Below are positions 5,497 to 32,636 of a DNA stretch of 64,000 bases, in pieces; positions within the stretch are counted from its first letter, which is position 1; each line of letters opens with the position of its first letter. Source of the DNA: an uncultured Lachnospiraceae bacterium (GTDB lineage Bacteria > Bacillota > Clostridia > Oscillospirales > CAG-272); assembly GCA_964464905.1 (NCBI GenBank), contig CAYXHC010000001.1, forward strand, positions 1,097 to 65,096, read 5' to 3'. The position numbers and the translations under genes are program-made. Below the pieces are notes generated by a model, which worked only from the letters and a program-made list of their open reading frames with translations, was not told where the DNA came from and searched no databases.

Positions 5497-6201
5497 ATGT
5501 ACAACATACTCGTTTGCGATGACGAAAAGGATATAGTGTCGGCGCTTGAAATATATCTTTCGGCTGAGGGATACCGCGTTTATAAGGCGTATGACGGCGA
5601 GGAGGCGATAAGCACCGTGAGAACGGAAGAGATACATCTCGTGCTTCTGGACGTTATGATGCCGATGACGGACGGGCTCCGCGCTATGAGGCGCCTGCGT
5701 GAGTTTTCAAACGTGCCCGTTTTGCTGCTGACGGCGAAAAGCGAGGAAACGGACAAAATAGCGGGACTGAACCTGGGCGCCGACGATTACATAACGAAGC
5801 CTTTCAATCCGGTTGAGGTTGCGGCGCGGGTGAAGGCGAATCTGCGTCGTTATATGCAGCTTGGCGGCGGTGACGTGAAGGCTCTTGAAAGCGTTTACAG
5901 CGTTTCCGGCATCGTGATGGACGATAAAGCTCACACCGTTACGAGAGACGGCGAGCCTATATCGCTGACTCCCACCGAATACGATATACTGAAACTGTTT
6001 CTGATGCATCCCGACGAGCTGATGACGCCGAAGCGCATTTACGGCGCGGTCTGGGGCGGCAATTTCATCGGTGGCGAGGGGACCGTTGCCGTTCACATAC
6101 GTCATCTTCGCGAAAAACTTGAATACGATCCGTCCTCACCGAGATATCTTCGCGTTGTGTGGGGGCAGGGGTATAAGCTGTCAAGCATCGTTGGTGTTTG
6201 A
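5497..6201 (+). CDS. OmpR/PhoB-family response regulator (receiver plus winged-helix domain)
   Basis: ORF track gives 5428..6201. I placed the start at ATG 5497 (MYNILVCDDEKDIV) with AAGGAG 9 nt upstream. Receiver motifs are DD, LLDVMMP.DG and LLLTAK. The C-terminal end reads ...HIRHLREKLE...VWGQGYKL, typical of OmpR-type DNA-binding domains. Confidence 0.9.
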   Translation: MYNILVCDDEKDIVSALEIYLSAEGYRVYKAYDGEEAISTVRTEEIHLVLLDVMMPMTDGLRAMRRLREFSNVPVLLLTAKSEETDKIAGLNLGADDYITKPFNPVEVAARVKANLRRYMQLGGGDVKALESVYSVSGIVMDDKAHTVTRDGEPISLTPTEYDILKLFLMHPDELMTPKRIYGAVWGGNFIGGEGTVAVHIRHLREKLEYDPSSPRYLRVVWGQGYKLSSIVGV

Positions 6202-6233
6202 TATAAAAACATAAATATTAAGGAAAGGAACCG

Positions 6234-8156
6234 ATGAAAATGAAAAAACTTCAATGCTACAGATGGGCGCGAGTTGCGGCAGTGCTGCTGGCGGCTGTGA
6301 CGCTTACTGTTTTCTTTGGATCTGTCTTGGGGATCGTCGCTGCAGCAGATCTGGGACTCTATACACAAAGCTATGACAACGCAAAGGAAATGGCAGTGAC
6401 GGACGTGCTCTACGGCAATGCCTACCTTATAGTGAACGCCTACCGTGACAGCTATGTGCTTGGGTATTACTCACATTCACAGGCAAAAGCGCAGATGCAG
6501 GAAGCCGTGTTCCGCAAAAATCTTGATTTTGAGCTTTGGCGCGGGGAAGATATGCTCTATTCGTCTTATTCCGGTGTCGTTCCCGAGTCTGACGCTGTGT
6601 ATGAGCTTGGCGTGGCAGAGTACGGCGAGGGTGAATACAGCGTGCGTTTTTATCTTCTCAAAAACACGAAATGTTACGACGAGATCTATTTTATGGAGCA
6701 TTGGCTCGACAAGCTTTACGAAATGCGGTTCGCGCTCATCGTGATCTGCGTTTTGTCGTTGATCCTGTCGTTTTTGACGTGGCTTTTCGCCGTTTCTGCG
6801 GCGGGCAAGCGCCTCACCCTTGACGGATACGCAAGCGGCGTGCTGACGATGCTTGACCGCGTCCCTCTTGATCTGCTGCTGGCTTTTGCTGCAGCGGCTG
6901 TGTTTGTCGAGGCTCTCATATACGACTTCAACCACGACATAGGAGACATATTTACCGCCGTGCTTCTCGGCGTGTACGTTTTCGTTGATTCCGTATTCGT
7001 CACTCTTTTGTCGATGACCGTGAAGGTGCGTGTCGTAACGAAGACGGCACTTGATAACAATATCACGGCGATGCTTCTCAGACTGGGGTATAAGCTTGTA
7101 GTCCGGATATGGGAATGTATAAAGTCGGGAGCGAGGCTGATGGTGAAAATCGTTCGGTGCGTTCCCATGTTCTGGCGGACGCTGACTGCAACGATCGCCA
7201 TGACGGTGATAAGCTTCGTTATTACGTGTCTGGCTGCCGGAAACAGCGACGCGGCAATATTCCTTTTCGTGCTGTTTTGGCTTGCGGTAACGGTGTGGCT
7301 CTGCTTCTCCGCCTGGAATATGACGATACTCCGTCGGGGCGCCAAGCGTATCGCCGAAGGTGACCTTTCCTATCGCATCGACACGAAATATCTTCTTTTT
7401 GATTTTAAGCGTCACGCCGATGACCTTAACAGTATCAAAAACGGTATGGCAACGGCGGTGGAGGAACGGATGCGCGGCGAGATGTTCAAAACCGAGCTTA
7501 TCACCAACGTGTCCCACGATATAAAGACGCCTCTGACTTCAATAATAAATTACGTGGATCTTTTGAAAAAATGCGGAGTGGAAAATGAAGAAGCAAGAGG
7601 GTATATCGAGGTGCTCGACCGCCAATCCGCGAGACTCAAAAAGCTGACGGAGGATCTTGTAACTGCCTCGAAGGCGTCGTCGGGCGTCGTTAAAGCGGAG
7701 CTTAAGCCCTGCGATCTCGGGATCTTCGTTGAACAGACGGCGGGCGAATATGAAGAAAAGCTTGCGAAGGCGGATCTTAAGCTCGTGGTGTCAACGCCCG
7801 ACTATCCCGTTACCGTGGAGGCTGACGGCAAGCTTCTCTGGCGCATCTTCGATAACCTTATGAACAACGCTTTGAAATATTCGCTTCCGGGGTCGCGGGT
7901 GTACCTGTCTCTTAAAGAAAATGAAAGAGAAGGAACGGTGACGGTGACGAATGTGTCCCGCGAGCCGATAACGCGCGACGGGGGAGAGCTTACGGAAAGG
8001 TTCGTTCGCGGCGACGATTCCCGACATACGGAAGGCTCGGGACTCGGACTCTCTATCGCCAAAAGCTTCACGGAGCTTCAGAGAGGTACTTTTGACGTAA
8101 CGGCGGACTATGATCTGTTCCGCGTGACGGTGAAGTTTCCTTTGCCGGAGGAGTGA
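6234..8156 (+). CDS. Multi-pass membrane sensor histidine kinase (HisKA plus HATPase_c)
   Basis: The H-box is ELITNVSHDIKTPLTSI. The N box is NLMNNALKYS and the G boxes are GSGLGLSIAKS. TM1 is followed by an extracytoplasmic stretch of about 130 aa. Several further hydrophobic helices precede a HAMP-like linker. The gene starts 33 nt downstream of the response regulator stop. Confidence 0.9.
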   Translation: MKMKKLQCYRWARVAAVLLAAVTLTVFFGSVLGIVAAADLGLYTQSYDNAKEMAVTDVLYGNAYLIVNAYRDSYVLGYYSHSQAKAQMQEAVFRKNLDFELWRGEDMLYSSYSGVVPESDAVYELGVAEYGEGEYSVRFYLLKNTKCYDEIYFMEHWLDKLYEMRFALIVICVLSLILSFLTWLFAVSAAGKRLTLDGYASGVLTMLDRVPLDLLLAFAAAAVFVEALIYDFNHDIGDIFTAVLLGVYVFVDSVFVTLLSMTVKVRVVTKTALDNNITAMLLRLGYKLVVRIWECIKSGARLMVKIVRCVPMFWRTLTATIAMTVISFVITCLAAGNSDAAIFLFVLFWLAVTVWLCFSAWNMTILRRGAKRIAEGDLSYRIDTKYLLFDFKRHADDLNSIKNGMATAVEERMRGEMFKTELITNVSHDIKTPLTSIINYVDLLKKCGVENEEARGYIEVLDRQSARLKKLTEDLVTASKASSGVVKAELKPCDLGIFVEQTAGEYEEKLAKADLKLVVSTPDYPVTVEADGKLLWRIFDNLMNNALKYSLPGSRVYLSLKENEREGTVTVTNVSREPITRDGGELTERFVRGDDSRHTEGSGLGLSIAKSFTELQRGTFDVTADYDLFRVTVKFPLPEE

Positions 8157-8231
8157 AACAACGAGAAAGGGGAAATTTGCCGACTAATTCCAAAATCGCG
8201 GTCAAAATGTTACAATATTATTGATTTTTTA

Positions 8232-8261
8232 TTGACACAATGCAATTATATGTGTTATCAT
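8232..8261 (+). promoter_or_regulatory. SigA-type promoter for the first surface-protein gene
   Basis: TTGACA (8232-8237), 18 nt spacer, TATCAT (8256-8261), with TGTG immediately upstream of the -10. The conserved leader element starts about 7 nt after the -10 box. Confidence 0.65.
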
Positions 8262-8267
8262 ATAGAC

Positions 8268-8329
8268 AATAGTAGCCGGAGGGCGCCCTCCGTTATGATA
8301 GGTTCGCAGAACCTATCATAATAAACCTT
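8268..8329 (+). promoter_or_regulatory. Conserved 62-nt two-hairpin leader element, copy A
   Basis: 58 of 62 nt are identical to 12123-12184. It contains a 16-nt perfect palindrome, CGGAGGGCGCCCTCCG (8277-8292). It also contains a 13-bp perfect-stem hairpin, TTATGATAGGTTC-GCA-GAACCTATCATAA (8293-8321). No U-tract follows the hairpin. Confidence 0.8.
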
Positions 8330-8379
8330 TATGGCGGGAAGTTCCGACGGCACGAAAATTTATTTTGGAGGAACTTTTC

Positions 8380-9237
8380 ATGAAAAAGATTCTTGCTCTC
8401 GTAATGGTAGTTGCAATGCTCGCATGCTTCGCTACCGCTACATCCGCTGCAGAAATGAAGTTTGTTGAAGAAGCAAGCTTTGATTTCAGCACCACCGAAG
8501 GCCTCAAGGGCTATACCGCAAGCTGGCCCGGTAACGACCTCATGTGCAACGCTGCTGCTGCAGAGGTTGCTGAAGGCGTTATCGTTGACGGCGCATTCGT
8601 TGCAGGCACCATGGGCTTCGTTGTAGACGAAGTATTTGATGCTACCAACGGTATCAAGATCAAGATGGACATTACCATCGACAAGACCAAGGTTGGCGGT
8701 TCTCCCTGGTTCCAGGGCGTTGCTTCCTTCTTTAATGCAGACGGCAAGTCCGCTGAATTCCTCGCTCTCGCTGGCGAAGAGTTCGAGCACTCCTACGATG
8801 CATACTACCTCAACTACAAGGGTTCCGGTACTCACTTCCAGGCACATACCGGTGACCTCGGCGAAGGCGCTACCGGCAACAATGTTGTTTGGGGCGGCGA
8901 CGTTGCTGAAGACCTCGTTACCGACGATGCTCCCACCTGGAGCGGCACTGTAGAATTCATCGTTGTTCCCGCTGAAACCGGCGCTACCGTTACCATCCTT
9001 GTTGACGGCGTTGACATCGGTCTCCCCAACAACCCCGAATTCGCAAACTTCCTCTCTGACGAAATGCTCGTTACCATCGGTGCTACTCACTACGGCGACT
9101 ATGCACTCGCTTCCACCATTGATAACGTTGTTATCTACACCATGCAGGAAGAAGCTACTCAGACCGGTTTCGCTACTGTTGCTCTCGCAATCGTTGCAAT
9201 CGGTTCCGGCGCTTACATCGTATCCAAGAAGCACTAA
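8380..9237 (+). CDS. Secreted ConA/LamG-like (DUF1080-like) beta-sandwich protein with a C-terminal QTG-TM-KKH anchor
   Basis: ORF track gives 8365..9237. I placed the start at ATG 8380 with GGAGGA 8 nt upstream. The signal peptide is MKKILALVMVVAMLACFATATSA/AE. The C-terminus is EEATQTGFATVALAIVAIGSGAYIVSKKH (motif, hydrophobic helix, basic tail). The fold call is by eye from the beta-rich pattern ending ...STIDNVVIY. Confidence 0.7.
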   Translation: MKKILALVMVVAMLACFATATSAAEMKFVEEASFDFSTTEGLKGYTASWPGNDLMCNAAAAEVAEGVIVDGAFVAGTMGFVVDEVFDATNGIKIKMDITIDKTKVGGSPWFQGVASFFNADGKSAEFLALAGEEFEHSYDAYYLNYKGSGTHFQAHTGDLGEGATGNNVVWGGDVAEDLVTDDAPTWSGTVEFIVVPAETGATVTILVDGVDIGLPNNPEFANFLSDEMLVTIGATHYGDYALASTIDNVVIYTMQEEATQTGFATVALAIVAIGSGAYIVSKKH

Positions 9238-9253
9238 TTATTGGATCAAAAAA

Positions 9254-9278
9254 GGCTCCCTAAAGGGGGCCTTTTTTT
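9254..9278 (+). terminator. Rho-independent terminator
   Basis: Stem GGCTCCC (9254-9260), loop TAAA, stem GGGGGCC (9265-9271), followed by TTTTTTT (9272-9278). It is nearly the same hairpin as at 10190-10213. Confidence 0.85.
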
Positions 9279-9307
9279 AGATGGGCATCAAAATTGTAAA
9301 TAAAGTG

Positions 9308-9336
9308 TTGACAAAGTTTTTATGCGGTGTTATTAT
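9308..9336 (+). promoter_or_regulatory. SigA-type promoter for the second surface-protein gene
   Basis: TTGACA (9308-9313), 17 nt spacer, TATTAT (9331-9336). Confidence 0.7.
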
Positions 9337-9390
9337 GAGATATAAAGTTTTGATGCTTCATCAAAAACAAAAAAACATGGAGGAACTTTT

Positions 9391-10170
9391 ATGAAAAAGA
9401 TTCTTGCTCTCGTAATGGTAGTTGCTATGCTCGCATGCTTCGCTACCGTTGCAAACGCTGCTGCTCCCGAAGGACAGATTGCGTACTACACCTTTGACGC
9501 TGCTGACGAAGCAGGCCTCACCGTAAACGGCGACAACGCTACCTACGCTGACGGCGCTGTTACTCTCGGCGACGCTACTTACCTCACTGCGGACATCGAT
9601 CTTTCCGGTGTTACCGCTATGACCGTTGCTCTCAAGGTTAAGATCACCGATACTGATGCTAACTGGGGCTTTGAGATCACCTCTGAAGAGGCTCACTCCT
9701 GGCCGGCTGAGCATTACATCGGCTGCCTCCTCAACGGCAGTGCTGTGATCGAACGCTACAACAACACCGACGGTCGTCCCAATTCCGCTTCCGCTACTAT
9801 CGCGGTTGACGAATGGGTTGAGCTCGTAGTTGTTCTTCCTGAAGACGGCTCCATCGTTCTTTATGCTGACGGCGCAGAAGTTGCTAACGTTCCTCAGACC
9901 GAAGGCTTCGACCTCGCTATCGCAAACTGCATCGGCGAAACTCCCGTATTCCAGATTGGTAAGGCTAACTGGGGCGAAGGCGAATACGCTGCAGGCACCT
10001 CCATCGACACTTTTGCAGTTTACAACACTGCTCTCTCTGCTGACGAAGTAGCTACCGCTCTCGAAGCTCCCGCAGCAGACGAAGAAGCTGCTCAGACCGG
10101 TTTCGCTACCGTTGCTCTCGCAATCGTTGCAATCGGCTCCGGCGCTTACATCGTGTCTAAGAAGCACTAA
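9391..10170 (+). CDS. Secreted LamG-domain protein with a C-terminal QTG-TM-KKH anchor
   Basis: GGAGGA lies 7 nt upstream of the start. The signal peptide is MKKILALVMVVAMLACFATVANA/AA. The LamG-like hallmark is ...IGKANWGEGEYAAGTSIDTFAVYNTALSADEV, resembling the common ...D.V.IYNRALSA.EI ending. The C-terminus is EEAAQTGFATVALAIVAIGSGAYIVSKKH. Confidence 0.75.
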   Translation: MKKILALVMVVAMLACFATVANAAAPEGQIAYYTFDAADEAGLTVNGDNATYADGAVTLGDATYLTADIDLSGVTAMTVALKVKITDTDANWGFEITSEEAHSWPAEHYIGCLLNGSAVIERYNNTDGRPNSASATIAVDEWVELVVVLPEDGSIVLYADGAEVANVPQTEGFDLAIANCIGETPVFQIGKANWGEGEYAAGTSIDTFAVYNTALSADEVATALEAPAADEEAAQTGFATVALAIVAIGSGAYIVSKKH

Positions 10171-10189
10171 TTCCTGAATGAGCGAAAAA

Positions 10190-10213
10190 GGCTCCCGAAA
10201 GGGAGCCTTTTTT
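10190..10213 (+). terminator. Rho-independent terminator
   Basis: Stem GGCTCCC (10190-10196), loop GAAA, stem GGGAGCC (10201-10207), followed by TTTTTT. Confidence 0.85.
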
Positions 10214-10257
10214 GCGTTAAAATGCTGCGTTTGATTCAGTTAATGTTAATAAACGTA

Positions 10258-10286
10258 TTGCACCGGAGCGGGTTATATGGTATAAT
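10258..10286 (+). promoter_or_regulatory. SigA-type promoter for the lectin-like lipoprotein gene
   Basis: TTGCAC (10258-10263), 17 nt spacer, TATAAT (10281-10286). Confidence 0.7.
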
Positions 10287-10325
10287 AATCTTGCAATATC
10301 CTATATAATATAAGGAGAATTATTC

Positions 10326-11675
10326 ATGAAAAAGATACTTGCTCTTTTACTTGCCGTTATGATGCTGGCAGCTCTCGTTGCCTGCGACGATGGCAGTCTG
10401 CCTCCCGTTGACGGAGAAAGCGATAGCGAAGGCACGGGAACGGGCGAAGGCACCGAAACTGAGGCAGAATCCGAAACCGAAGAAGAAGACGAGGACTATG
10501 TCCCTGACTTTGAAGCGAAATACGGCGGCTGCGTCGGTGTGGGCGTTGAGTCCGGCTCCGCTTACTTCGATAACCTTAAGGTTGTGTCTAAGCAGACCGA
10601 TAAGAAGGAGCTCTACTACGATGAGCTCGAGGGCGAGCTTCCCGTTCTCACTTACGTTACGGGTGCTGAAGCCGATTGGGCTGTTGCTGTTGACCCCACC
10701 GAGGATGAAGATGAGGATGATCCCAACCACGCTCTCGGATACACGGGCTCTTCCGCTTCTATGGTGACCTTCGGTTCCTCCAACTGGAATTACTATCAGT
10801 ATTCCATGAAGGTGTATCCCGTTGACGACACCACAGTTATCGATCTTTATTTCTGCGTTACCGATGCTGATAACTATTTCGTCGTTTCCGTTGGCGGAAA
10901 CGATGGCGATTCCCTTTGCTATCAGGTAGTCGGCGGCGAGAAGACGGCTGTTGCGCCCAGTGTTTACGCTCCCGTTGAGATCGGTGAATGGACCTCCGTC
11001 GGCATTACCGTTGAACGTGAGACCATCGATATCTACATCGGCGGCACCAAGCGCTTCTCTCTCTTTAATGATGAATTCGAATACAGCATGACCATCGCAA
11101 ACAGAGCTACCGTTAACGCTCCTTACTGCGCTTCCTGGGAAACTCCCGGCTCCATTAACGACGGTATGTATCCTGACGCTACCTACGCTTCCGTTTCCAA
11201 CGGTACCGCTTACGGCTCCTGGAGCATGGCAGATATATCCGAGACCATTTCTTACGAATGGGACGAGGCTGTGACTGTTGACGGTATCGGTCTCTTCTTC
11301 TGGCAGGACAAGGAAACCCGTGAATACTGGCTCGAAAACGGCGGTATCCACTCTGCTTCCTACTATACCATCCAGTATCTCGATGAAAACGGCGACTACG
11401 TAGACGTTGAAAATGCTGTTGGTCTTGAGGTTCTCGATGACGTTATGAACCAGACCTTCTTCGATGCTGTTACCACCACGTCAATTCAGGTAACTCTCTA
11501 TAAGTTCACCGAAGAGGAGGATGCTACCTACAGATTCTCCGAATATAAGGAGTATGAAGCAAACGGCGGCGATGTCGATGCTGAAGATGCACCTACGGAT
11601 CCTTCCATCCGCGGACTCGGACTCTTTGAGTTTGAAGTGTACGCAGCAGGCACAGTTGAAAGACCCGAGGAATGA
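10326..11675 (+). CDS. Lipoprotein with an acidic linker, a ConA/LamG-like domain and a C-terminal discoidin/galactose-binding-like domain
   Basis: The signal and lipobox are MKKILALLLAVMMLAALVAC. A Glu/Asp/Thr-rich linker follows. FDNLKV and ...IDIYIGG... strands resemble DUF1080/LamG. The C-terminal half (ASWETPGSINDG...GSWS...ISYEWDEAVTVDGIGLFFWQD...) looks like an F5/8-type-C carbohydrate-binding module. Domain calls are by eye. Confidence 0.6.
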   Translation: MKKILALLLAVMMLAALVACDDGSLPPVDGESDSEGTGTGEGTETEAESETEEEDEDYVPDFEAKYGGCVGVGVESGSAYFDNLKVVSKQTDKKELYYDELEGELPVLTYVTGAEADWAVAVDPTEDEDEDDPNHALGYTGSSASMVTFGSSNWNYYQYSMKVYPVDDTTVIDLYFCVTDADNYFVVSVGGNDGDSLCYQVVGGEKTAVAPSVYAPVEIGEWTSVGITVERETIDIYIGGTKRFSLFNDEFEYSMTIANRATVNAPYCASWETPGSINDGMYPDATYASVSNGTAYGSWSMADISETISYEWDEAVTVDGIGLFFWQDKETREYWLENGGIHSASYYTIQYLDENGDYVDVENAVGLEVLDDVMNQTFFDAVTTTSIQVTLYKFTEEEDATYRFSEYKEYEANGGDVDAEDAPTDPSIRGLGLFEFEVYAAGTVERPEE

Positions 11676-11711
11676 GTTTTTCGGCAATGACGCCTACATA
11701 AAACAATAACG

Positions 11712-11743
11712 GCTGACGCGGTTTTTCCGCGTCAGCTTTTTTT
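11712..11743 (+). terminator. Rho-independent terminator
   Basis: Stem GCTGACGCGG (11712-11721), loop TTTTT, stem CCGCGTCAGC (11727-11736), followed by TTTTTTT. Confidence 0.9.
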
Positions 11744-11768
11744 GTTTGTCGGCGCGAAACTGAGGATG

Positions 11769-11828
11769 TGTGAATAAAACTGTGAATATCGTTGAATATT
11801 TTTTTGAGGGGAAATTTTGTGTTAAAAT
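11769..11828 (+). promoter_or_regulatory. Candidate activator-dependent promoter: three TG(T)GAAT direct repeats plus an extended -10
   Basis: The repeats are TGTGAAT (11769), TGTGAAT (11781) and GTTGAAT (11791), spaced 12 and 10 bp apart. TG-T-TAAAAT follows at 11820-11828, and there is no recognisable -35. A transcript from here would carry a leader of about 450 nt into the importer operon. Confidence 0.4.
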
Positions 11829-12122
11829 ATTGTTCGATAAAATGAACAAAGTATGGCGAAAAAGTCCGACTTGTGTTATGAAATATGGTGAAAAAGATGA
11901 AAAAGTGCTGTGGGGACTTGAAATATTACACCGATGTATGATAAAATAAACAAACATTAAAAATCAAAATGTATAGGTGTTTGTATTTTGTTTTTTATTG
12001 GGAAGCGATTCCTTGACGACGACGGCGTTGCCGCGTCGTTCAATGGCGCATTGTGATGCCCGGTCAGTGTATGCCGGACCGGTGCGCAACTGTCTTTCCT
12101 TGTGTATGCGTTATTATATAAA

Positions 12123-12184
12123 AATAGCAGCCGGAGGGCGCCCTCCGTTATGATAGGTTCTGCGAACCTATCATAATAAACCTT
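12123..12184 (+). promoter_or_regulatory. Conserved 62-nt two-hairpin leader element, copy B
   Basis: It has the same palindrome (12132-12147) and the same 13-bp stem (12148-12160 / 12164-12176) as copy A. The 3-nt loop is TGC here, the reverse complement of GCA in copy A. One further substitution is at 12128. Confidence 0.8.
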
Positions 12185-12222
12185 ATCATTAAGCCGGAAC
12201 GGGGGAAGGGCAGATCATTTCG

Positions 12223-12270
12223 TTAACGGAGAGCTAAGCTCTGTTAAATTATATTTTTTTATATTTTTTT
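12223..12270 (+). terminator. Terminator-like hairpin plus T-rich tract inside the importer leader (possible attenuator)
   Basis: TTAAC-GG-AGAGC (12223-12234), loop TAA, GCTCT-GTTAA (12238-12247), then ATTATATTTTTTTATATTTTTTT. It lies immediately before the RBS GGGAGGA (12271-12277). The stem is short and imperfect. Confidence 0.4.
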
Positions 12271-12285
12271 GGGAGGAACAAAAAA

Positions 12286-14748: not shown

Positions 14749-14794
14749 TTCTGATAACTGAAATAATCATACTGAATACACCATAAAAAAGGCG

Positions 14795-14926: not shown

Positions 14927-14984
14927 GAATCAACTATTTTTCACTCTATAATCTACCATCCCTTAAGCTAAGGAGAATAACGTT

Positions 14985-15950
14985 ATGACGAAATACGTTA
15001 TAAAAAGAATCCTTTTGATGTTCTTCACGCTGTTCGTTATTGTTACGATCGCGTTTACGCTTATAAGACTGCTCCCTCAGCAGCCGCCGGACGGACTCGA
15101 CGCGAACCAGCGAAAAGCAGTTCTTGATCGTTGGAGAGCTCTTGGTTATGAAGAGCCCATTCCTACGCAGTTTGCGATCTACCTGAAGAATATCTTCACA
15201 AACGGAGACTTCGGCACGTCCTGGTCTATTGACTACCGTGAGCCTGCCCTTGATCTTCTTTTGTCCAGACTTCTTCCCACCGTTATCGTAAACCTTTATT
15301 CACTGCTGTTCTCCATCCCGATAGGTATCGGCCTCGGCATTTATGCAGCAGTCAAGAAAAATAAATGGCAGGACTCCTTCATAAGCACTATCGTTATGGT
15401 GTTTATTTCCGTGCCCTCCTACGTTTATGCCTTCCTCGTTCAGTATTTCTTCTATTATAAGTGGAACCTTCTGCCTCAGCTCGTTTCGTCTCTTGCGGAT
15501 GCGGGCGGTTCCTGGTTCTCCTGGAAGATGTTCGTAAGTATGATCTCCCCCGTGCTTGCGCTCTCCTTCGGTGAGATCGCAGGTCTTTGCCGTTTCACAA
15601 GAGCAGAGCTTACGGAGACCCTTACCTCCGACTATATGCTGCTCGCACGCACGAAGGGACTTACCCGCGCGCAGGCAACCACCCGTCACGCACTTAAAAA
15701 TGCAATGGTGCCGATCCTCCCCATGATCATTTCCAGCTTCGTTGGCATCCTCGGCGGTTCTATGATCATCGAACAGATCTTCTCCGTTCCCGGCGTTGGT
15801 CAGCTCTATATGCGTTCCATCAATCTGCTTGACTACGACGTATTTATGGTCGATACTGTATTCTACACGTTTATCGGACTTCTTGCCGGCATCGTCGTTG
15901 ATATAAGCTACGGCTTCATCGATCCGAGAATCAGAATGGGAGAAAAATAA
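14985..15950 (+). CDS. ABC transporter permease, OppB/DppB-like
   Basis: 321 aa, six predicted TM segments. The EAA-type loop reads LARTKGLTRAQATTRHALKNAMVPILP. AAGGAG lies 9 nt upstream of the ATG. Confidence 0.9.
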   Translation: MTKYVIKRILLMFFTLFVIVTIAFTLIRLLPQQPPDGLDANQRKAVLDRWRALGYEEPIPTQFAIYLKNIFTNGDFGTSWSIDYREPALDLLLSRLLPTVIVNLYSLLFSIPIGIGLGIYAAVKKNKWQDSFISTIVMVFISVPSYVYAFLVQYFFYYKWNLLPQLVSSLADAGGSWFSWKMFVSMISPVLALSFGEIAGLCRFTRAELTETLTSDYMLLARTKGLTRAQATTRHALKNAMVPILPMIISSFVGILGGSMIIEQIFSVPGVGQLYMRSINLLDYDVFMVDTVFYTFIGLLAGIVVDISYGFIDPRIRMGEK

Positions 15951-15951
15951 T

Positions 15952-17604
15952 ATGGCAGAAAAAACCTTTGATATTAACAGTATCCCGCGTGAGAAATTTG
16001 AATTTGCCCACGAAGGCGAACGCCTTATGGACAAAAAGTTCGATGATAAGCCGATAAGCTATTTCCGCGATGCATGGATCCGCTTCCGCAAGAATAAAGC
16101 GTCCGTTGCCGCGCTTGCTATCATCGTTATTATTGCTCTTTTCTCGTTCCTTTGCCCCGTTATCTCCGGATTCAGATCTACGGAAAAGACGACGTTTGAT
16201 AAAACGTTTATGGACGTTTATTATGCAAAGAAGGGACCGAGAAACGAGTTCCTTGCCAATATCGGCATTGCCGACGGTACCGTTGAGCGCTCTTATTCCG
16301 AGAAATCTCTCGTTTACACCGTTGGTATAGGCGTTGGTGCTGCAGACGGCGATGCTCACGGTGCGACCTTTGAGGAGGGGCTTGCAAGCAAGTATCAGCC
16401 TCTCATAAGAGGCTACAGTGATCCCGTGCTTCAGCAGAATGCAAAGAAGCAGATGGTTGAATATTATTATGCCGATTCCGACGTTTATCTTGAGGTTGGC
16501 TTTATCGAAAAGTCTATCGAGCAGTCCGAATACGCAGCGCTCAAGGCGTGGGAAGAGGAGACCGGTCTTCAGGTCCTCTATCCTCTTGTTGCGAAGAACG
16601 AATTCAATGCAGACCCTGCAAACGCAAACAACTGGTATAAGACTCAGAAGAACAATCCCGTTTCCGTTGATGAAGACGGTAACGTGACAAAGATCAAGCT
16701 TGCCGATCTCCAAAGCGGTAAGGCAGTGCTCGAGGATAATTACGAGCGCGACGCTGAGGGTAATGTTCTTTATTACAAGTACTCCGGAAGCAGCGACTTT
16801 GATACTGCTATGTTCAGAGTCCGTCTCCTTTACTATAACTACTATATGTTCAACAATGGCTTCGCACCCGAATATATTTTCGGTACCGACAGCCAGGGCT
16901 ACGACCTTGCTATACGTATGGCAGATGGTATCAGACTCTCTCTGCTCGTTGCCGTTTTCGTTTCCGTTATCAATTTCGTTCTCGGCGCTATGTACGGTGC
17001 CATTGAAGGATACTACGGCGGAACCATTGATATCATTCTTGAGCGTGTGTCCGATATCCTTGCAGGTATCCCCTTCGTCGTCGTTGCGACATTGTTCCAA
17101 CTCCACCTGAAGGACCCGATGGACCTTTTCTTCAGAAATGAATTCGGTCTTAAGTCTGCAGGTCCTATCGTATGTCTTCTCTTTGCATACGTCGTAACCG
17201 GATGGATCGGCACTGCGTCCAGAGTCAGAACGCAGTTCTACCGCTTCAAGTCTCAGGAATACGTTATGGCAGCAAGAACCCTCGGCGCGAGCGACCGCCG
17301 TATCATTTGGAAGCACATTTTCCCGAACACACTCGGTACTATCATCACATCATCCGCACTCGTTATCCCCGGAGTTATCAACTCAGAAAGTATGCTCAGC
17401 TATTTGGGTATCGTTAAGCTCGGTACAGCGGAAGCAACCTCTCTCGGTACGCTTCTCTCCGATGCAAGCAGCATCTGGACGAACTACCCGCACCTTCTCA
17501 TTTTCCCCGCTCTCATACTCTCTCTCCTTATGATATGCTTCAACCTATTCGGTAACGGTCTGCGCGATGCATTTAACCCGTCCCTTCGCGGTGTGGAGGA
17601 CTAA
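15952..17604 (+). CDS. ABC transporter permease, OppC/DppC-like, with an insertion of about 240 aa between TM1 and the GTD motif
   Basis: 550 aa. TM1 spans about aa 51-72. The canonical FGTDSQGYDLAIRMADGIRLSL motif appears only at aa 310. The EAA loop is ARTLGASDRRIIWKHIFPNTLG. The start lies 1 nt after the previous stop. Confidence 0.9.
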   Translation: MAEKTFDINSIPREKFEFAHEGERLMDKKFDDKPISYFRDAWIRFRKNKASVAALAIIVIIALFSFLCPVISGFRSTEKTTFDKTFMDVYYAKKGPRNEFLANIGIADGTVERSYSEKSLVYTVGIGVGAADGDAHGATFEEGLASKYQPLIRGYSDPVLQQNAKKQMVEYYYADSDVYLEVGFIEKSIEQSEYAALKAWEEETGLQVLYPLVAKNEFNADPANANNWYKTQKNNPVSVDEDGNVTKIKLADLQSGKAVLEDNYERDAEGNVLYYKYSGSSDFDTAMFRVRLLYYNYYMFNNGFAPEYIFGTDSQGYDLAIRMADGIRLSLLVAVFVSVINFVLGAMYGAIEGYYGGTIDIILERVSDILAGIPFVVVATLFQLHLKDPMDLFFRNEFGLKSAGPIVCLLFAYVVTGWIGTASRVRTQFYRFKSQEYVMAARTLGASDRRIIWKHIFPNTLGTIITSSALVIPGVINSESMLSYLGIVKLGTAEATSLGTLLSDASSIWTNYPHLLIFPALILSLLMICFNLFGNGLRDAFNPSLRGVED

Positions 17605-17607
17605 GTC

Positions 17608-19767
17608 ATGGATAAGATTCTTGAAGTTAAAGGACTTAAAATATCGTTCCGTACAAGCAGCGGAACGCTCAAGGCGGTTCGTGATATCTCCTTCGACCTT
17701 GAGCGCGGTAAGACTCTTGCCATAGTCGGTGAATCCGGCTCCGGCAAGTCTGTTACATCAAAAGCAATTCTCGGTATTCTTGCCGGCAACTCTATTATTG
17801 AGGGTGGCGAGATACTTTACGACGGTAAGGATCTTCTTAAGATCACCGAGGATGACATGTATAAGATCCGCGGAGATAAGATCTCTATGATCTTCCAGGA
17901 TCCGCTTTCGTCTCTGAATCCCATCGTTAAGATCGGTAAACAGATCACGGAAGCAATGCTCCTTAAAAATAAGGCAAACCGCAAGGAAGCGAGAGCTGAA
18001 TTTAACAGCATCCTCGCTCTCCTTCGCGAGAATATGATTGCAGCGTCCGGTGCTGAAAATGCGTCGAAGATCGAGGAGATGATCTCAACCTTCGACAAGT
18101 TCTGCATTGAGGCGACCAAGATCGAAACTGAATATAACGAAGCTTCTTCCGTTGCAGAAGAGCTTATCTCCAACATTGAAGACTTCGTCTTTATGATGGA
18201 AAAGAAGCAGAAGCTCGACGTTAAGGCGTCTCTCAAGGAATATGCAGAAAAGCTCGCAAGAGTTAAGAATCAGTTCCTTACAGTTGATCGCGACGAGGAG
18301 CTCACACGTCTCGCGGATGAAATGCTCGCTTTCAGAGCAGAGTATAAGAAGGACGCAAACGCTGAGGGCATGACTGAAAAGGTCATTTCCGTTCTTCGTG
18401 AAGTGCAGGCGGTCCTCCGGCAGGTGCTTGCAACCGAGCGTCCCAACTTCTTCCGCATCGGCTACTATAAGTACTGCGGAAACGACATTTCTCTTAACGG
18501 TAGGACCGTAGAAGAGCTCAACGAGATCACGCTTTCGTATCTCGACGAGAATTATATGAGAGAGTTCATCTCCGTTGAGACTAAGGGCGTTGAACATTCG
18601 TATAATGTTGCCCTCGAAAAGAAGAAGGAGGTTCTCGGAAAGCTTTCTGAAGCAAAGGAATTCTATCGCGGTGATTTCAAACAGAAGGCGGCAGAAGCTC
18701 TCTGCAAGACTCTTTCCGCTGAAGTTGAAGCTTCCATTGACAAGCTGGAGCTGCTCAAGGATAGTACTGCATACACGTTCAGAAGCAGTCTCTCCGGCGC
18801 CGTTGCGCAGTACTTCCGTTTCAAGAAGCAGAATCCTCGCGAGGAAGCACGCTTCGAACGTCAGACTAAAAAGCGCGATGCTCTTATCGCTCGCGGCAAG
18901 ACTGTTGACTGGAAGGTAGTGCCCAAGGTCGTCTACGATCTTGACGAGCTCAAGGCGAACATCGTTTCCATCATTGAGCATCTTGAAGAGCGCTACAATG
19001 CATACATTGCAGGTGCCGATTCTATAGATTTCAAGACACGCAGCTCCGATATCGTAGATCACCTTAAGGAAAAGGCTTCTCAGGTGGTTTACCGTGTAAC
19101 TGCAAGTATGGCAAAGGAACAGGCTATCAAGCTTATGGACGAGGTTGGTATCCACGAGCCCCGTACCCGTTACTATCAGTATCCCTTCGAGTTTTCCGGC
19201 GGTATGCGTCAGAGAATCGTTATCGCTATTGCACTTGCGGCAAACCCCGACATTCTCATCTGCGATGAACCTACCACTGCTCTCGACGTTACCATTCAGG
19301 CACAGATACTTGAGCTTATCAATAAGCTCAAGAGAGAAAGAAACCTTTCCGTTATCTTCATCACACACGACCTTGGTGTCGTTGCGAACATGGCTGACGA
19401 CATCGCAGTTATGTACGCAGGTAAGATCGTTGAATACGGTACGGCTGACGATATTTTCTATGATCCTCGTCATCCTTACACCTGGGCGCTCCTTTCTTCT
19501 ATGCCCGATCTCGATACCAATGAAAAACTCGACGCTATCCCCGGCACACCTCCCAATATGATCTATCCCCCTGTGGGCGATGCTTTTGCAGACCGTAACA
19601 AGTACGCGCTTAAGATAGATTTCGAGGCTCAGCCTCCTATGTTTGAGGTGTCTCCCACTCATAAGGCTGCTACCTGGCTCCTGCATCCCGATGCACCAAA
19701 GGTTGAGGTGCCGAAGATCATTACGAGCCGCATCGAAAGAATGAAAAAGGCAGGAGGTAATAACTGA
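17608..19767 (+). CDS. ABC transporter ATP-binding protein, OppD-like, 719 aa with an insertion of about 360 aa in the helical subdomain
   Basis: Walker A is GESGSGKS (aa 41-48). The Q-loop is MIFQDP (aa 94-99). The signature FSGGMRQR appears only at aa 529-536. Walker B is ILICDEPTTALD. The C-terminal Opp-type extension reads PRHPYTWALLSSMP. Confidence 0.9.
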   Translation: MDKILEVKGLKISFRTSSGTLKAVRDISFDLERGKTLAIVGESGSGKSVTSKAILGILAGNSIIEGGEILYDGKDLLKITEDDMYKIRGDKISMIFQDPLSSLNPIVKIGKQITEAMLLKNKANRKEARAEFNSILALLRENMIAASGAENASKIEEMISTFDKFCIEATKIETEYNEASSVAEELISNIEDFVFMMEKKQKLDVKASLKEYAEKLARVKNQFLTVDRDEELTRLADEMLAFRAEYKKDANAEGMTEKVISVLREVQAVLRQVLATERPNFFRIGYYKYCGNDISLNGRTVEELNEITLSYLDENYMREFISVETKGVEHSYNVALEKKKEVLGKLSEAKEFYRGDFKQKAAEALCKTLSAEVEASIDKLELLKDSTAYTFRSSLSGAVAQYFRFKKQNPREEARFERQTKKRDALIARGKTVDWKVVPKVVYDLDELKANIVSIIEHLEERYNAYIAGADSIDFKTRSSDIVDHLKEKASQVVYRVTASMAKEQAIKLMDEVGIHEPRTRYYQYPFEFSGGMRQRIVIAIALAANPDILICDEPTTALDVTIQAQILELINKLKRERNLSVIFITHDLGVVANMADDIAVMYAGKIVEYGTADDIFYDPRHPYTWALLSSMPDLDTNEKLDAIPGTPPNMIYPPVGDAFADRNKYALKIDFEAQPPMFEVSPTHKAATWLLHPDAPKVEVPKIITSRIERMKKAGGNN

Positions 19768-21023
19768 TGGAAGAAATCAAAAACGGTGAAGTTCTTCTCA
19801 AAGTTGAGAACCTGTGCCAGTATTTCAAAACGAATAAGGCTGTTGACGACGTAAGTTTCGAGATCAAGAAGGGCGAGGTTTTCGGACTCGTTGGAGAATC
19901 CGGTTGCGGTAAAACGACTACCGGCCGTTCCATCATCAAGATCTACGATATCACGTCAGGCAGCATCTATTTTAAGGGGCAGCGCATCTGTGCAGGTGTT
20001 CGTTCATATCTGAACGCTATCTCCGAAGCGAGAAAGTCCACTGCAGAAAAGATCAAGTCTCTTAAGGATGAGATCAAAGCTGATCCCGCAAAGGCAGATA
20101 CGAACAAGGCACTTATCGCTGAAGCGGAAGCAGAACTCAAAAAGATCGTGGCGGAAAACCGCGCCAATATTAAGTCTGCCAATTTCGATCATAGGTATTC
20201 CGACAGAGAATACTCAAAAACGTTGGTTGAAAGGATCAAGACAGAATATAAGGAACAGCTTAAGGCGGCAGAAGGCGATGCTAAGAAGACGGCAGAGCTG
20301 AAGCGCAAATATAAGAACGATCTCCGTGTTGCAAAGAACACGAAGCTCGTTACTAAGATACAGATGATTTTCCAGGATCCCATCGCGTCTCTCAATCCCC
20401 GTATGACGGTACGAGAGATCATCGCGGAAGGTCTCGTTATCAACGGTATCAAGGACAAGGAATATATTGACGAGAAGGTATACGAGATCCTTGAGCTCGT
20501 TGGTCTCGTTCGTGAACACGCAGGTCGTTATCCTCATGAGTTCTCAGGCGGTCAGCGTCAGAGAATCGGTATCGCCCGTTCCGTTATTATGCGTCCCGAT
20601 CTTCTTATCGCAGACGAGCCTATCTCCGCTCTTGACGTTTCCATTCAGGCTCAGATCATCAACCTTTTGAATGATCTTCGTCAGCAGCTCAGTCTTACCA
20701 TTCTCTTCATCGCACACGATCTTTCAGTCGTTAAGTATTTCTCCGATAGGATCGGTGTTATGTACTACGGTAAGATGGTAGAGCTTGCAACCTCCGATGA
20801 GCTTTTCGCGCATCCGTTGCATCCTTATACTCGTTCGCTTCTTTCTGCTATTCCGCTTCCGGATCCCCATTCGGAAAAGAACCGCACGAGGATCGTATAT
20901 AATTCTCTCGCGGAACACGATTACAGTGTTGATAAGCCCTCTATGAGAGAGATCACTCCCGGTCACTTCGTTTACTGTAACGATGCTGAGGAAACACGTT
21001 ACAAGAAGGAGCTTGGTCTGTGA
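19767..21023 (+). CDS. ABC transporter ATP-binding protein, OppF-like, 418 aa with an insertion of about 110 aa between Walker A and the Q-loop
   Basis: Walker A is GESGCGKT (aa 43-50). The Q-loop QMIFQDP appears only at aa 199-205. The signature is FSGGQRQR and Walker B is LLIADEPISALD. The ATG overlaps the upstream TGA by 1 nt. Confidence 0.9.
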   Translation: MEEIKNGEVLLKVENLCQYFKTNKAVDDVSFEIKKGEVFGLVGESGCGKTTTGRSIIKIYDITSGSIYFKGQRICAGVRSYLNAISEARKSTAEKIKSLKDEIKADPAKADTNKALIAEAEAELKKIVAENRANIKSANFDHRYSDREYSKTLVERIKTEYKEQLKAAEGDAKKTAELKRKYKNDLRVAKNTKLVTKIQMIFQDPIASLNPRMTVREIIAEGLVINGIKDKEYIDEKVYEILELVGLVREHAGRYPHEFSGGQRQRIGIARSVIMRPDLLIADEPISALDVSIQAQIINLLNDLRQQLSLTILFIAHDLSVVKYFSDRIGVMYYGKMVELATSDELFAHPLHPYTRSLLSAIPLPDPHSEKNRTRIVYNSLAEHDYSVDKPSMREITPGHFVYCNDAEETRYKKELGL

Positions 21024-21436
21024 AAAAGTATGCTCCGACAATTTTCAAATACGCCGTTACAATCGTGTTTGGCGCTATAATGTCGTGTTTGATATTTGAA
21101 AATTACGAATATGCCTCGGTTACCGATCTTGCTCAGAAGTATAAGATACTTTGCGATGCTTTTTCGGTGCCCGGTATCCTTCTGATAATGCTCGGATGCC
21201 TTGTGTATCTATCGAACGAAGGTGCTCTTGACGGCGTTTCGTTTTTGGTTGGCGGTGTTTTCAAGCGTCTGTTTCCGTTCGGGCAATGGCGCGAGGAAAG
21301 ATACGAGAAATATTCCGAATACGTAGAGCGCAAGCGCTCAAAAAAAGTAAAGGGATATGGCTTCGTTTTCATCGTCGGTGCAGGCTTCTTTGCTGTCTCA
21401 CTCATATTCTATTACCTGTTTTACAGCGTATATTGA
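21020..21436 (+). CDS. Small membrane protein (DUF3899-like), translationally coupled to the importer
   Basis: The GTG start overlaps the upstream stop (GTGA, 21020-21023). It is 138 aa with three or four hydrophobic segments and a central basic loop (ERKRSKKVKG). The DUF3899 assignment is by eye and tentative. Confidence 0.55.
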   Translation: MKKYAPTIFKYAVTIVFGAIMSCLIFENYEYASVTDLAQKYKILCDAFSVPGILLIMLGCLVYLSNEGALDGVSFLVGGVFKRLFPFGQWREERYEKYSEYVERKRSKKVKGYGFVFIVGAGFFAVSLIFYYLFYSVY

Positions 21437-21448
21437 CAAAGAAAAGAT

Positions 21449-21490
21449 CCGATTTCAAGAGTATGTGCCCTTGAAATCGGATTTTTTGTT
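21449..21490 (+). terminator. Rho-independent terminator ending the importer operon
   Basis: 13-bp stem ATCCGATTTCAAG (21449-21461) / CTTGAAATCGGAT (21472-21484), followed by TTTTTT. Confidence 0.85.
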
Positions 21491-21525
21491 CGTTTTGGAT
21501 AATGTTCGGGAATGGAACCGTTATT

Positions 21526-21555
21526 CGTTGACATCCGTAGTGCGGCGGTGATATA
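21526..21555 (+). promoter_or_regulatory. SigA-type promoter for the GH43 gene
   Basis: TTGACA (21526-21531), 18 nt spacer, TATACT (21550-21555). Confidence 0.6.
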
Positions 21556-21591
21556 CTGAAAACAGAGAAAAACTCTGCTGAGGTGTTGGCT

Positions 21592-23013
21592 ATGAAGACG
21601 AAAGAATACATAAAGGGCGCAAATCCATACATGCCCCTCTGGGAACACGTTCCGGACGGTGAGCCCCGTGTGTTTAACAATAACGGTGAGGAGAGACTTT
21701 ACGTTTACGGCTCCCACGATACGCTGAAAACGGAGTACTGCGGCACGGATTATGTTGTGTGGAGCGCGCCTACGGATGACCTTACCGACTGGAAATGTCA
21801 CGGTATATGCTACCGTTCGTCGGATGGCAGTCCGCTTTACGCGCCCGACGTGGTGGAGAAGGACGGAATATACTATCTGTATGCGGCGGAGGGCAGAGGC
21901 TCGCGTATCTTTGTGGCAAAGAGTGAAACACCGTGGGGACCTTTTACGGATCCCGTAAAAACGGAGCTTGGATTTGATCCCGGCGTGTTTGTTGACGATG
22001 ACGGTAGGGTGTATGCATTCTGGGGATTCTGCGCCGCATACGCAGCGGAGCTCTGTGACGATATGGCAACCATAAAGACCGGAACATTCCGCGCACAACC
22101 TATCGGCTGCTGCGACGCGCCCTGGCGAAACGGAAACTTGCCATATGATCCCGTTGATTCGTTTTTTGAAGCGTCCTCTCCTAGAAAGGTGGGGGATAAA
22201 TACATTTACATCTATTCAAAGCGTTATGAGGGGTATTTGCCCGAGTTTGGAATAAACGGTCCCTGCAGCGGATTTCTTTCCTATCAGTACAGCGACTCGC
22301 CCCTGGACGGATACGTGTGGGGCGGCGACATAAGTCTTAACGCAGGCGAGATTCTGGAGAAGAAGGAGGGCAAGGAACACACCTTCCGTTGGGGAAACAA
22401 TCACGGAAGCATCGTTTGCGTGAAGGGAAAGTGGTACGTGTTCTACCATAGACAGACCGGTCGCGACGAATACTCCCGTCAGGCGATGCTGGAGCCTATC
22501 GAGGTGGCGTTTGGCAAGGACGGGAAGCCTTATATAGGCAAGGTGATATACGAAAACGGGGAACCCATAGCTTCCGTGCCTGTTGAAATGACCTCTCAAG
22601 GAGCGCATACGGACGGTATTGATGCGTATAAGATCATATCCGCAGGCTATGCCTGTCATATTTCCAGAGCAAAGGGGGCGTATATCGTTGCCGTTTACGA
22701 CGAGATTGAATCGGTGACGGCTCCGGTGGCTGATATACCGAACGGAGGTGTAGTTGGCTTCAGATATTTGAATTTTGGTGACGTTTCGCCAAAGACGGTG
22801 ACTTTGGAAGCAGAATCCGAGGCGAATCTTACGGTAAACGTACGTATTAACAGCCGCGACGGTGAGATCATTGCAACCGTGGTGATCGAAAAAGGCAAGA
22901 CGGAGGCTGATGCTGACGTAAAAGCAAACGTCACGGGCAACAAGGCGGTGTATTTTGAGTTTGTCACCGACGGCAGCCTTGCGAGATTCGACAGATTCAC
23001 CTTCGACCGATAA
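21592..23013 (+). CDS. Glycoside hydrolase family 43 (beta-xylosidase / alpha-L-arabinofuranosidase-like) with a C-terminal beta-sandwich
   Basis: ORF track gives 21583..23013. I placed the start at ATG 21592 with GAGGTG 6 nt upstream. The N-terminus, NPYMPLWEHVPDGEPRVF...LYVYGSHD, is typical of cytoplasmic GH43 enzymes. No signal peptide is present. Confidence 0.8.
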   Translation: MKTKEYIKGANPYMPLWEHVPDGEPRVFNNNGEERLYVYGSHDTLKTEYCGTDYVVWSAPTDDLTDWKCHGICYRSSDGSPLYAPDVVEKDGIYYLYAAEGRGSRIFVAKSETPWGPFTDPVKTELGFDPGVFVDDDGRVYAFWGFCAAYAAELCDDMATIKTGTFRAQPIGCCDAPWRNGNLPYDPVDSFFEASSPRKVGDKYIYIYSKRYEGYLPEFGINGPCSGFLSYQYSDSPLDGYVWGGDISLNAGEILEKKEGKEHTFRWGNNHGSIVCVKGKWYVFYHRQTGRDEYSRQAMLEPIEVAFGKDGKPYIGKVIYENGEPIASVPVEMTSQGAHTDGIDAYKIISAGYACHISRAKGAYIVAVYDEIESVTAPVADIPNGGVVGFRYLNFGDVSPKTVTLEAESEANLTVNVRINSRDGEIIATVVIEKGKTEADADVKANVTGNKAVYFEFVTDGSLARFDRFTFDR

Positions 23014-32623: not shown

Positions 32624-32636
32624 AATGAGTCCTGCC

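Follow-up and report, generated by a model that had tools for sequence, protein, structure and literature searches.

We examined a 64,000-nt stretch of DNA from an uncultured Lachnospiraceae bacterium (assembly GCA_964464905.1, contig CAYXHC010000001.1, positions 1,097 to 65,096), called the window below, in which positions are counted from the first letter. Our subject is the segment from 5,497 to 23,013, where genes for a two-component system (TCS), three surface proteins (A, B and C), a six-gene Opp-type importer and a glycoside hydrolase of family 43 (GH43) follow one another, and a 62-nt element that occurs in the leaders of both gene A and the importer. An earlier note, made from the letters alone, had proposed that all these parts form one co-regulated capture-and-import system. 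Comparison with relatives leads us to a different account, which we hold to be probable: the region would be a mosaic of two independently inherited modules and a young duplicated DNA segment.

The regulator has a receiver and a winged-helix Trans_reg_C domain and the kinase has HisKA and HATPase_c, which is the domain set of an OmpR/PhoB-family TCS; the earlier note had described a regulator and kinase pair. The regulator's top NCBIfam models are VanR- and YycF-like, with every score below cutoff, and full-length homologues of the kinase at ~40% identity are widespread across Clostridia. On the other side of the TCS promoter lie three genes for lipoproteins that weakly resemble substrate-binding proteins (SBPs). 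Two of them fall within an exact 1479-nt tandem duplicate (2082-3560 = 3777-5255) that either arose very recently or is an artefact of the assembly. Downstream, Pfam domains agree with the note's six-gene importer followed by a cytoplasmic GH43 enzyme, the latter having no signal peptide. Because separate promoters and terminators were assigned for A, B, C, the importer and GH43, the region appears to hold at least six transcription units; for the surface-protein genes the earlier description, separately promoted, is reasonable on these predicted signals. Feature coordinates are collected in Table 1.

Table 1. Positions of genes and signals in the window
Feature	Position	Strand	Remarks
SBP-like lipoprotein, paralogue 1	396-1847	-	483 aa; lipobox signal peptide; weak SBP_bac_8 match, E 8e-5, below curated cutoff
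SBP-like lipoprotein, paralogue 2	2086-3540	-	protein identical to paralogue 3
SBP-like lipoprotein, paralogue 3	3781-5235	-	divergent from regulator gene; 65% identical to same-position lipoprotein of L017
Direct repeats ATCTTAA-N4-ATCTTAA plus third ATCTTAA (5440-5446)	5406-5446	+	upstream of and overlapping TCS promoter, -35 region
TCS promoter	5456-5464	+	extended -10, TGgTACAAT
Response regulator gene	5497-6201	+	OmpR/PhoB family; Pfam Response_reg and Trans_reg_C
Histidine kinase gene	6234-8156	+	HisKA and HATPase_c; ~130-aa outer loop, sensor region with several transmembrane segments
Gene A promoter	8232-8261	+	TTGACA-18-TG-TATCAT; 11/12 consensus match, sigma-70-like
Element, copy 1	8268-8329	+	two perfect hairpins from predicted +1 of A transcript
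Surface protein A	8380-9237	+	signal peptide, weak LamG; C-terminal ATQTG, transmembrane segment, KKH
Sorting-signal coding stretch of A	9150-9237	+	
Gene A terminator	9244-9277	+	hairpin and T-run
Gene B promoter	9308-9336	+	
Surface protein B	9391-10170	+	LamG/ConA-like; C-terminal AAQTG, transmembrane segment, KKH
Sorting-signal coding stretch of B	10083-10170	+	
Gene B terminator	10180-10213	+	
Lipoprotein C	10326-11675	+	own sigma-70-like promoter; lipobox; N-terminal ConA-like and C-terminal F5/8-type-C-like domains, both predicted
Gene C terminator	11711-11737	+	
TGTGAA-N6-TGTGAA-N5-TTGAAT	11769-11797	+	phased pair at 11769-11786
Importer promoter	11918-11947	+	TTGAAA-18-TG-TAAAAT; conserved in L016, L001 and L003
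Importer leader	11918-12285	+	promoter and leader, the latter ~330 nt; counterparts L016 3430-3716, L001 9710-9980, L003 9735-9990 (~250-330 nt)
Element, copy 2	12123-12184	+	inside ~83-nt insertion (12100-12183) of importer leader
Terminator-like hairpin TTAACGGAG...CTCTGTTAA and T-run	12223-12247	+	just before importer ribosome-binding site; conserved in L016, L001 and L003
SBP	12286-14748	+	820 aa; lipobox; SBP_bac_5; Opp/Dpp (cluster C) fold
OppB-type permease	14985-15950	+	
OppC-type permease	15952-17604	+	550 aa; ~230-aa extracytoplasmic insertion after first transmembrane segment (residues ~75-300)
OppD-type ATPase	17608-19767	+	719 aa; ~365-aa charged helical insertion in nucleotide-binding domain (residues ~130-495)
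OppF-type ATPase	19767-21023	+	418 aa
DUF3899 small membrane protein	21020-21436	+	last gene of importer operon; small gene at same place in L001-L003
Importer operon terminator	21447-21482	+	
GH43 promoter	21528-21557	+	preceded by importer terminator
GH43 enzyme with CBM6	21593-23013	+	Glyco_hydro_43 E 8e-22; CBM_6; no signal peptide, cytoplasmic

Distribution of the two proposed modules

Two relatives, L001 (GCA_045588245.1; SBP 84% identical) and L016 (GCA_045586225.1), keep the full gene order of the window. In L017, whose kinase is 44% identical, a 484-aa lipoprotein gene on the minus strand is followed by contiguous genes for the regulator, the kinase, a LamG protein, a 443-aa C homologue and GH43 with CBM6, and there is no importer. 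Conversely, L002 and L003 (SBP 66% identical) have the six-gene importer intact, including the long OppC and OppD and the small terminal membrane protein, next to unrelated genes, which in L002 encode a DNA methylase and a beta-lactamase-like protein and in L003 are glycogen genes and one for a PepF peptidase. Homologues of protein B (74%, 59% and 46% identity; L011-L013) are encoded singly or in pairs, and neither a TCS nor an importer or GH43 lies within 10 kb of them. The TCS itself is followed in another relative (kinase 40% identical) by a sigma/anti-sigma pair of the extracytoplasmic function type. The lipoprotein gene is retained beside the TCS, encoding 483 aa in L001 as against 484 in L017.

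From this gene order, the lipoprotein, TCS, LamG, C and GH43 genes look like a real conserved module, recognizable down to 44% kinase identity, and the importer is, by the same comparison, a separate module placed between C and GH43 in this lineage only (window, L016 and L001). The first module would consist of one to three SBP-like lipoprotein genes divergent from an OmpR-type regulator and a kinase with several transmembrane (TM) segments, of separately transcribed LamG proteins with an APQTG-TM-KKH signal, of the ConA-like, F5/8-type lipoprotein and of the cytoplasmic GH43-CBM6 enzyme. It may sense or bind glycans at the cell surface, with the SBP-like lipoprotein possibly a co-sensor of the kinase as CuaD is with CuaSR. 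The second would be a self-contained six-gene importer of the Opp/Dpp family, with its own promoter and leader, widespread in uncultured Oscillospiraceae-like Clostridia.

The single system of the earlier note, a Gram-positive analogue of a polysaccharide or peptide utilization locus running from the TCS to GH43 under control of the TCS and the shared leader, would work in steps: a glycan or peptide would be caught at the surface by the lectin-like proteins and brought in through the Opp-type system, and GH43 would cut it in the cytoplasm. The genes are tightly clustered on the same strand in an order kept in the window, L016 and L001, and GH43 is indeed cytoplasmic. Nevertheless we consider this reading improbable. 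The note had itself named synteny in relatives as the check, and the importer, missing in L017 and alone in L002 and L003, fails there as part of a conserved system; LamG genes occur without TCS or importer in L011-L013, and the at least six transcription units are each served by a separate promoter and terminator. What survives of the proposal is the conserved association of the TCS, LamG, C, GH43 and lipoprotein genes; the importer is separable from it, the shared element is recent and no promoter motif is common to the parts.

The promoter evidence is as follows. The repeat ATCTTAA-N4-ATCTTAA is exact and unique upstream of the regulator gene in the window, in L001 (2274-2291) and in L017 (2849-2866), and is a good candidate, on position and conservation, for an autoregulatory operator of the TCS, being typical of OmpR-family direct repeats. 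Its sole exact occurrence in the window is at the TCS promoter; none of the promoters of genes A, B and C, of the importer and of GH43 has it. The direct repeats that an OmpR-family regulator should share among its proposed target promoters were accordingly not seen within the window, and the conserved motif of the TCS promoter being missing from the others speaks against common control.

The earlier note had pointed instead to TGTGAA-type direct repeats in the promoter regions around the TCS and upstream of the importer leader. Such repeats were not confirmed as exceeding chance: near the TCS there is a single hexamer, at 5316, and phased pairs number three in the window vs 0.9 expected, with a maximum of four in shuffles. 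Half of the pair at 11769 survives in L016 and none of it in L001. With a number of pairs that shuffles also reach, and without conservation in L001, TGTGAA was rejected as the regulator's box, and with it falls a further argument for a single system. Boxes of the form TGTWAH-N5/6-TGTTGA abut the -35 before B and C genes in four genomes. These resemble WalR/PhoP boxes; as sites of this regulator they were rejected, since they could be neither assigned to it nor distinguished from A/T-rich sequence like that of UP elements.

The 62-nt element and its probable duplication

The element was reported by the earlier note at gene A and at the importer, with no third copy in 64 kb, and it proved to be there in exactly two copies that are identical at 58 of 62 positions; none of 100 shuffles gave two matches. 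It consists of adjacent perfect hairpins, CGGAGG-GCGC-CCTCCG and TTATGATAGGTTC-NNN-GAACCTATCATAA (folding z about -5.5 to -5.6), and both copies stand upstream of a GGAGG ribosome-binding site (RBS). The repeat is real but its boundary had to be moved, because a further ~20 nt on the upstream side are also similar, though less so, and reach into a -10 box (copy 1, TG-T-TATCAT; copy 2, CG-T-TATTAT). Gene A's promoter has its predicted +1 where copy 1 starts. Copy 2 has the TATTAT box only, with no TG and no -35, and lies ~170 nt downstream of a different promoter, that of the importer. Three of the four differences between the copies make up the hairpin-2 loop, GCA in copy 1 vs TGC in copy 2, of a 29-nt perfect palindrome (8293-8321 and 12148-12176); being exact reverse complements, the loops point to the palindrome having been inverted as DNA rather than to three independent substitutions.

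Relatives show how the sites look without the element. L016, the closest relative with the importer leader, aligns base for base except for the ~83 nt that contain copy 2, and relative to this empty site CCTT stands at both junctions of the insertion. Copy 1 has no flanking CCTT repeat. The element is absent from L016 and from both sites in L001, and the block is missing from the leaders of orthologous and paralogous surface-protein genes. Two hairpins in the L001 importer leader were considered as an ancestral form and rejected, since ~50 nt there match positionally the sequence flanking the insertion in the window and L016. The one further occurrence is in L020 (Logan SRR14307659), which is of the same species (kinase 97% identical) and has the copy-1 element in identical sequence as far as its contig reaches: L020 2895-3072 equals window 8120-8297 save one base in the kinase coding sequence, and the contig breaks off within the element where hairpin 2 starts.

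Wider scans gave seven exact-pattern matches in 185,579 GTDB representative genomes, all of which were discarded as unrelated terminators, no match in the JGI metagenomes to either the hairpin-2 core pattern or the pattern of hairpin 1 plus junction, and one match in IMG/VR, to the hairpin-2 core and left uninspected; none of the collections scanned yielded a confirmed homologous copy. At gathering thresholds Rfam matched nothing in the whole window, and a permissive scan of 5200-12400 gave terminator-like chance matches only (E>0.1). Judged by the sequences compared, the element is confined to this species.

We propose that a segment of ~80 nt, comprising the -10 box and the two hairpins, was copied within the species from the promoter and leader of gene A into the importer leader. 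This direction is suggested because copy 2 has a degraded gene-A -10 box in a context that is not a promoter. At gene A the element would form the 5′ end of the mRNA, probably as a 5′ stem-loop leader, and at the importer it would be an internal passenger in a longer leader. In this genome the element does link gene A with the importer, as a single system would have it, but it is a species-specific insertion; on this view any coupling between the two would be a recent accident or innovation at the species level and not an ancestral regulon.

It is also possible, though rather unlikely in our judgement, that the element is a dispersed selfish repeat (REP- or MITE-like, that is, of the repetitive extragenic palindromic or miniature inverted-repeat transposable kinds) with many genomic sites and no dedicated regulatory role. 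Such repeats are known, and a contig break inside an element is typical of repeats in short-read assemblies, as happened in L020. Copy 2 is a clean insertion with the 4-nt junction sequence, the element has two perfect palindromes and its reverse-complemented loop reflects an event at the DNA level, and copy 1, too, is extra sequence vs the paralogous leaders. A dispersed repeat is less easily squared with two copies in 64 kb that have the same orientation and both occupy 5′ leaders of plus-strand genes, with the lack of a CCTT duplication at copy 1, with collections in which the single IMG/VR match is the only candidate, or with homology that extends into a -10 box matching the gene A promoter, which fits copying of a promoter and leader better than a mobile element. 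Like REP and MITE repeats the element is short, palindromic and intergenic with a 4-nt junction repeat; unlike them it is known in two copies and has no MITE-type terminal inverted repeats.

We think it doubtful, and less probable than such a repeat, that the element is a functional cis-regulatory module that puts gene A and the importer under common control, be it as an operator whose 13+13-bp palindrome a dimeric DNA-binding protein would occupy or as an RNA element in which the GGAGG/CCUCC of hairpin 1 could act as a decoy or anti-Shine-Dalgarno sequence. Conservation between the copies is much higher in the hairpin region than in the ~20 nt that flank it, folding is strong (z about -5.5), the GGAGG RBS lies downstream of both copies, and inversion of the loop would be neutral both for an operator with a non-specific spacer and for a stem-loop. 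On the other side, two near-identical copies give no evidence of covariation, no candidate binding protein is encoded nearby, the closest relatives do not have the element in their orthologous leaders, and its position in the transcript differs, +1 at gene A vs about +170 at the importer. Stabilizing stem-loops occur at the 5′ end of Firmicute mRNAs; the stable hairpins with which the gene A mRNA is predicted to begin are like these, and copy 2, internal to a longer leader, is not.

The mosaic remains the reading that we favor, and several observations weigh against it. All parts are adjacent in three genomes (window, L016 and L001), so that a lineage-specific functional association is possible. 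The first module minus the importer is seen in L017 alone, on a contig that stops soon after GH43. The substrate of a cytoplasmic GH43 has to be brought in by some importer, and no other one adjoins. As for the duplicated segment, the count of copies covers the 64-kb window, and its left ~20 nt are ~70% identical vs ~94-100% for the hairpins. That contrast is contrary to a simple recent copy and hints at selection or gene conversion on the hairpins; together with the contig break in L020, the uneven identity keeps both a dispersed selfish repeat and a selected functional hairpin module as live rivals.

Surface proteins and importer

The earlier note had A, B and C as lectin-fold proteins anchored through a QTG motif. 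Protein B is clearly LamG and has a ConA-like domain by its match to Laminin_G_3 (E 3.7e-14; 53.6 bits vs the 27.6-bit cutoff). Protein A is below threshold with the same model (20 bits, E 8e-4), and its last ~95 residues align to B. Protein C has no significant match of its own (17 bits). Searching 1.8 billion representatives turned up 134 relatives of C; 25 full-length ones match Laminin_G_3 (13/25), 3-keto-disaccharide hydrolase (12/25) or F5/8 type C (5/25), and the family profile weakly matches the ConA-like domain of an arabinanase (PDB 5hon, E 0.002). A ConA/LamG-like fold is plausible for all three, and on these profile matches it is strong for B only.

The predicted anchor is as described for A and B, but C is a lipoprotein. 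A and B each begin with a cleavable signal peptide and end in the same sequence, QTGFATVALAIVAIGSGAYIVSKKH. Across ~33 homologues (P0121-P0155) the consensus APQTG-[FV]AT[IV]ALA..A..SGAYIVSKK(R)H is near-invariant, the TM helix included. The three-part C-terminus (a motif like xPQTG, a hydrophobic helix and a KK(R)H tail) is like that of LPXTG sortase substrates, but the motif is A-(P/T/A)-Q-T-G and not LPXTG, and the TM segment and tail (SGAYIVSKKH) are unusually invariant. C. difficile SrtB substrates have (S/P)PXTG or NVQTG motifs. None of the NCBIfam anchor models matched at E<0.01, and no sortase gene was seen among window open reading frames of at least 180 aa.

Surface-protein genes vary in number between close relatives, as L001 has four (5001-8090) vs three in the window; the extra one encodes a 234-aa APQTG protein (5138-5842). 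At all four surface-protein promoters of L001, phased TGTGAM-N5 repeats abut GTGTTGACA. L013 (6955-10867) has a tandem pair of LamG/APQTG genes directly 3′ of lgt and a gene for an Rce1-like (CPBP) intramembrane protease, and an Rce1-like protein is also encoded in the window (27042-28226), ~4 kb downstream of GH43. A tie between such a protease and processing of the C-terminal signal is possible.

The importer has the composition of the Opp/Dpp (PepT) family, with SBP_bac_5, two permeases and two oligo_HPY ATPases, all above Pfam gathering scores. Membership of that family is secure on the domain and fold models. The AlphaFold (AF2) model of the SBP, from a 30-sequence alignment, has a pLDDT of 83.6, and its top Foldseek neighbors are the peptide binders Listeria OppA, pneumococcal AliD/AliB/AmiA, MppA and DppE (12-14% identity, E 1e-21), with chitooligosaccharide binders further down the list. 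The fold match would fit a peptide or an oligosaccharide substrate. The chitooligosaccharide proteins among the matches are in favor of the single capture-and-import system, as is the existence of Opp-fold SBPs that bind oligosaccharides, known from Thermotoga according to the passage of PMC12838199 that cites Cuneo et al. 2009; that the top neighbors bind peptides counts against it. No importer protein reached an NCBIfam equivalog cutoff, and among the neighborhoods only PepF, upstream in L003, hints at a substrate. Some 2,000 homologues of the SBP at E<0.001, among 8,000 candidates scored, come mostly from metagenome-assembled genomes of uncultured Oscillospiraceae/Clostridia.

The earlier note called the importer oversized. 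The SBP, OppC and OppD are indeed enlarged, but this is not unique to the window: the large insertions in OppC and OppD are conserved throughout the importer family, and the ATPases best match enlarged models of the Mycoplasma type, the top NCBIfam models for OppD and OppF being those of Mycoplasma mycoides (scores below curated cutoffs). OppD aligns to solved OppD-type ATPases at residues 1-127 and 496-689, and its alignment to Rv1281c breaks at 127/496.

The importer promoter, leader and terminator-like hairpin before the RBS look, from sequence and conservation, like an attenuator; the leader had no Rfam match and a five-sequence alignment yielded no supported consensus structure. The SBP and OppB genes are 236 nt apart (14749-14984); in between stand a GC-rich hairpin with a weak T-run (14795-14820) and a second long hairpin, and a gap of 250-430 nt is kept in L001-L003. 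These hairpins are probably an attenuator or stabilizer within the operon that sets the ratio of SBP to permease.

Elsewhere in the window a second carbohydrate-type cluster (31538-37993) encodes two GFO/IDH/MocA oxidoreductases (31538-33815), a 500-aa paralogue of the SBP-like lipoproteins (30% identical; 33925-35427), an AraC-family regulator (35512-36366) and a GH29 alpha-L-fucosidase (36512-37993). An ordinary dcw cluster (mraW, ftsL-like, PBP, murE/murF, mraY, ftsW, murG, ftsQ, ftsZ) occupies 46721-60264, and CysS, UvrC and TrmD are encoded elsewhere. The dcw cluster and these three genes show the window to be core chromosome and not a mobile island.

Relation to described systems

The earlier note did not recognize this gene combination as a described system. 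The concept of a Gram-positive polysaccharide utilization locus (gpPUL) already exists, with an operational definition of at least one enzyme that degrades polysaccharide, a system for carbohydrate transport and a regulator of transcription (Sheridan et al. 2016, PMC5320581), so that the combination belongs to no new category. Two of these three are here, the enzyme (GH43) and the regulator (with its kinase); the transporter present is of the Opp/Dpp type with peptide binders as fold neighbors. That a glycoside hydrolase, a transport system and a regulator share one locus is the gpPUL likeness, and it speaks for a single system; unlike a gpPUL, the transporter is not syntenic with the hydrolase and regulator outside this lineage, and there are several transcription units with no common conserved promoter motif.

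The first module resembles CuaDSR of Ruminiclostridium cellulolyticum (PMC10384115) in that a gene for an SBP-like lipoprotein adjoins the kinase and regulator pair, an arrangement kept across relatives here. It differs in that the lipoprotein is weakly SBP-like (E 8e-5, one paralogue) and the kinase is multi-TM, and the likeness is one of gene arrangement and domain content. The second module is like Opp/Dpp importers (TC 3.A.1.5) in having SBP_bac_5, two BPD_transp_1 permeases (one with OppC_N), two oligo_HPY ATPases and the fold of OppA/Ali/MppA/DppE, and like Mollicutes Opp ATPases in that those models (NCBIfam MMSYN1_0167/0168), its best matches, are also longer than classical OppD/F. Unlike them, its scores are below equivalog cutoffs, its SBP has 820 aa vs about 520-650 aa in solved ones, and it has the ~365-aa OppD insertion and the extra DUF3899 membrane protein.

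A bolder account would make the first module an undescribed Gram-positive system for surface glycan sensing and display, its sorting signal the mark of a new dedicated anchoring pathway and the double-hairpin leader a portable regulatory cassette by which the species would lately have drawn the importer into the regulon; we give this little credence. The locus is best read as mostly ordinary, a conserved sensory, surface and GH43 module with an independently inherited Opp-type operon inside it.

Were the single-system reading true, uncultured Clostridia of gut or rumen would here have a nutrient-capture locus of a new type. The lesson as it stands is that genes that adjoin and share a repeat, when seen in one genome, are no evidence of a regulon. 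Three leads emerge as modest targets for annotation: the conserved lipoprotein-TCS-LamG-GH43 module, the enlarged Opp-type importers, a large family of wide occurrence whose ATPase insertions are Mollicutes-like, and the strongly conserved C-terminal sorting signal of the APQTG type.

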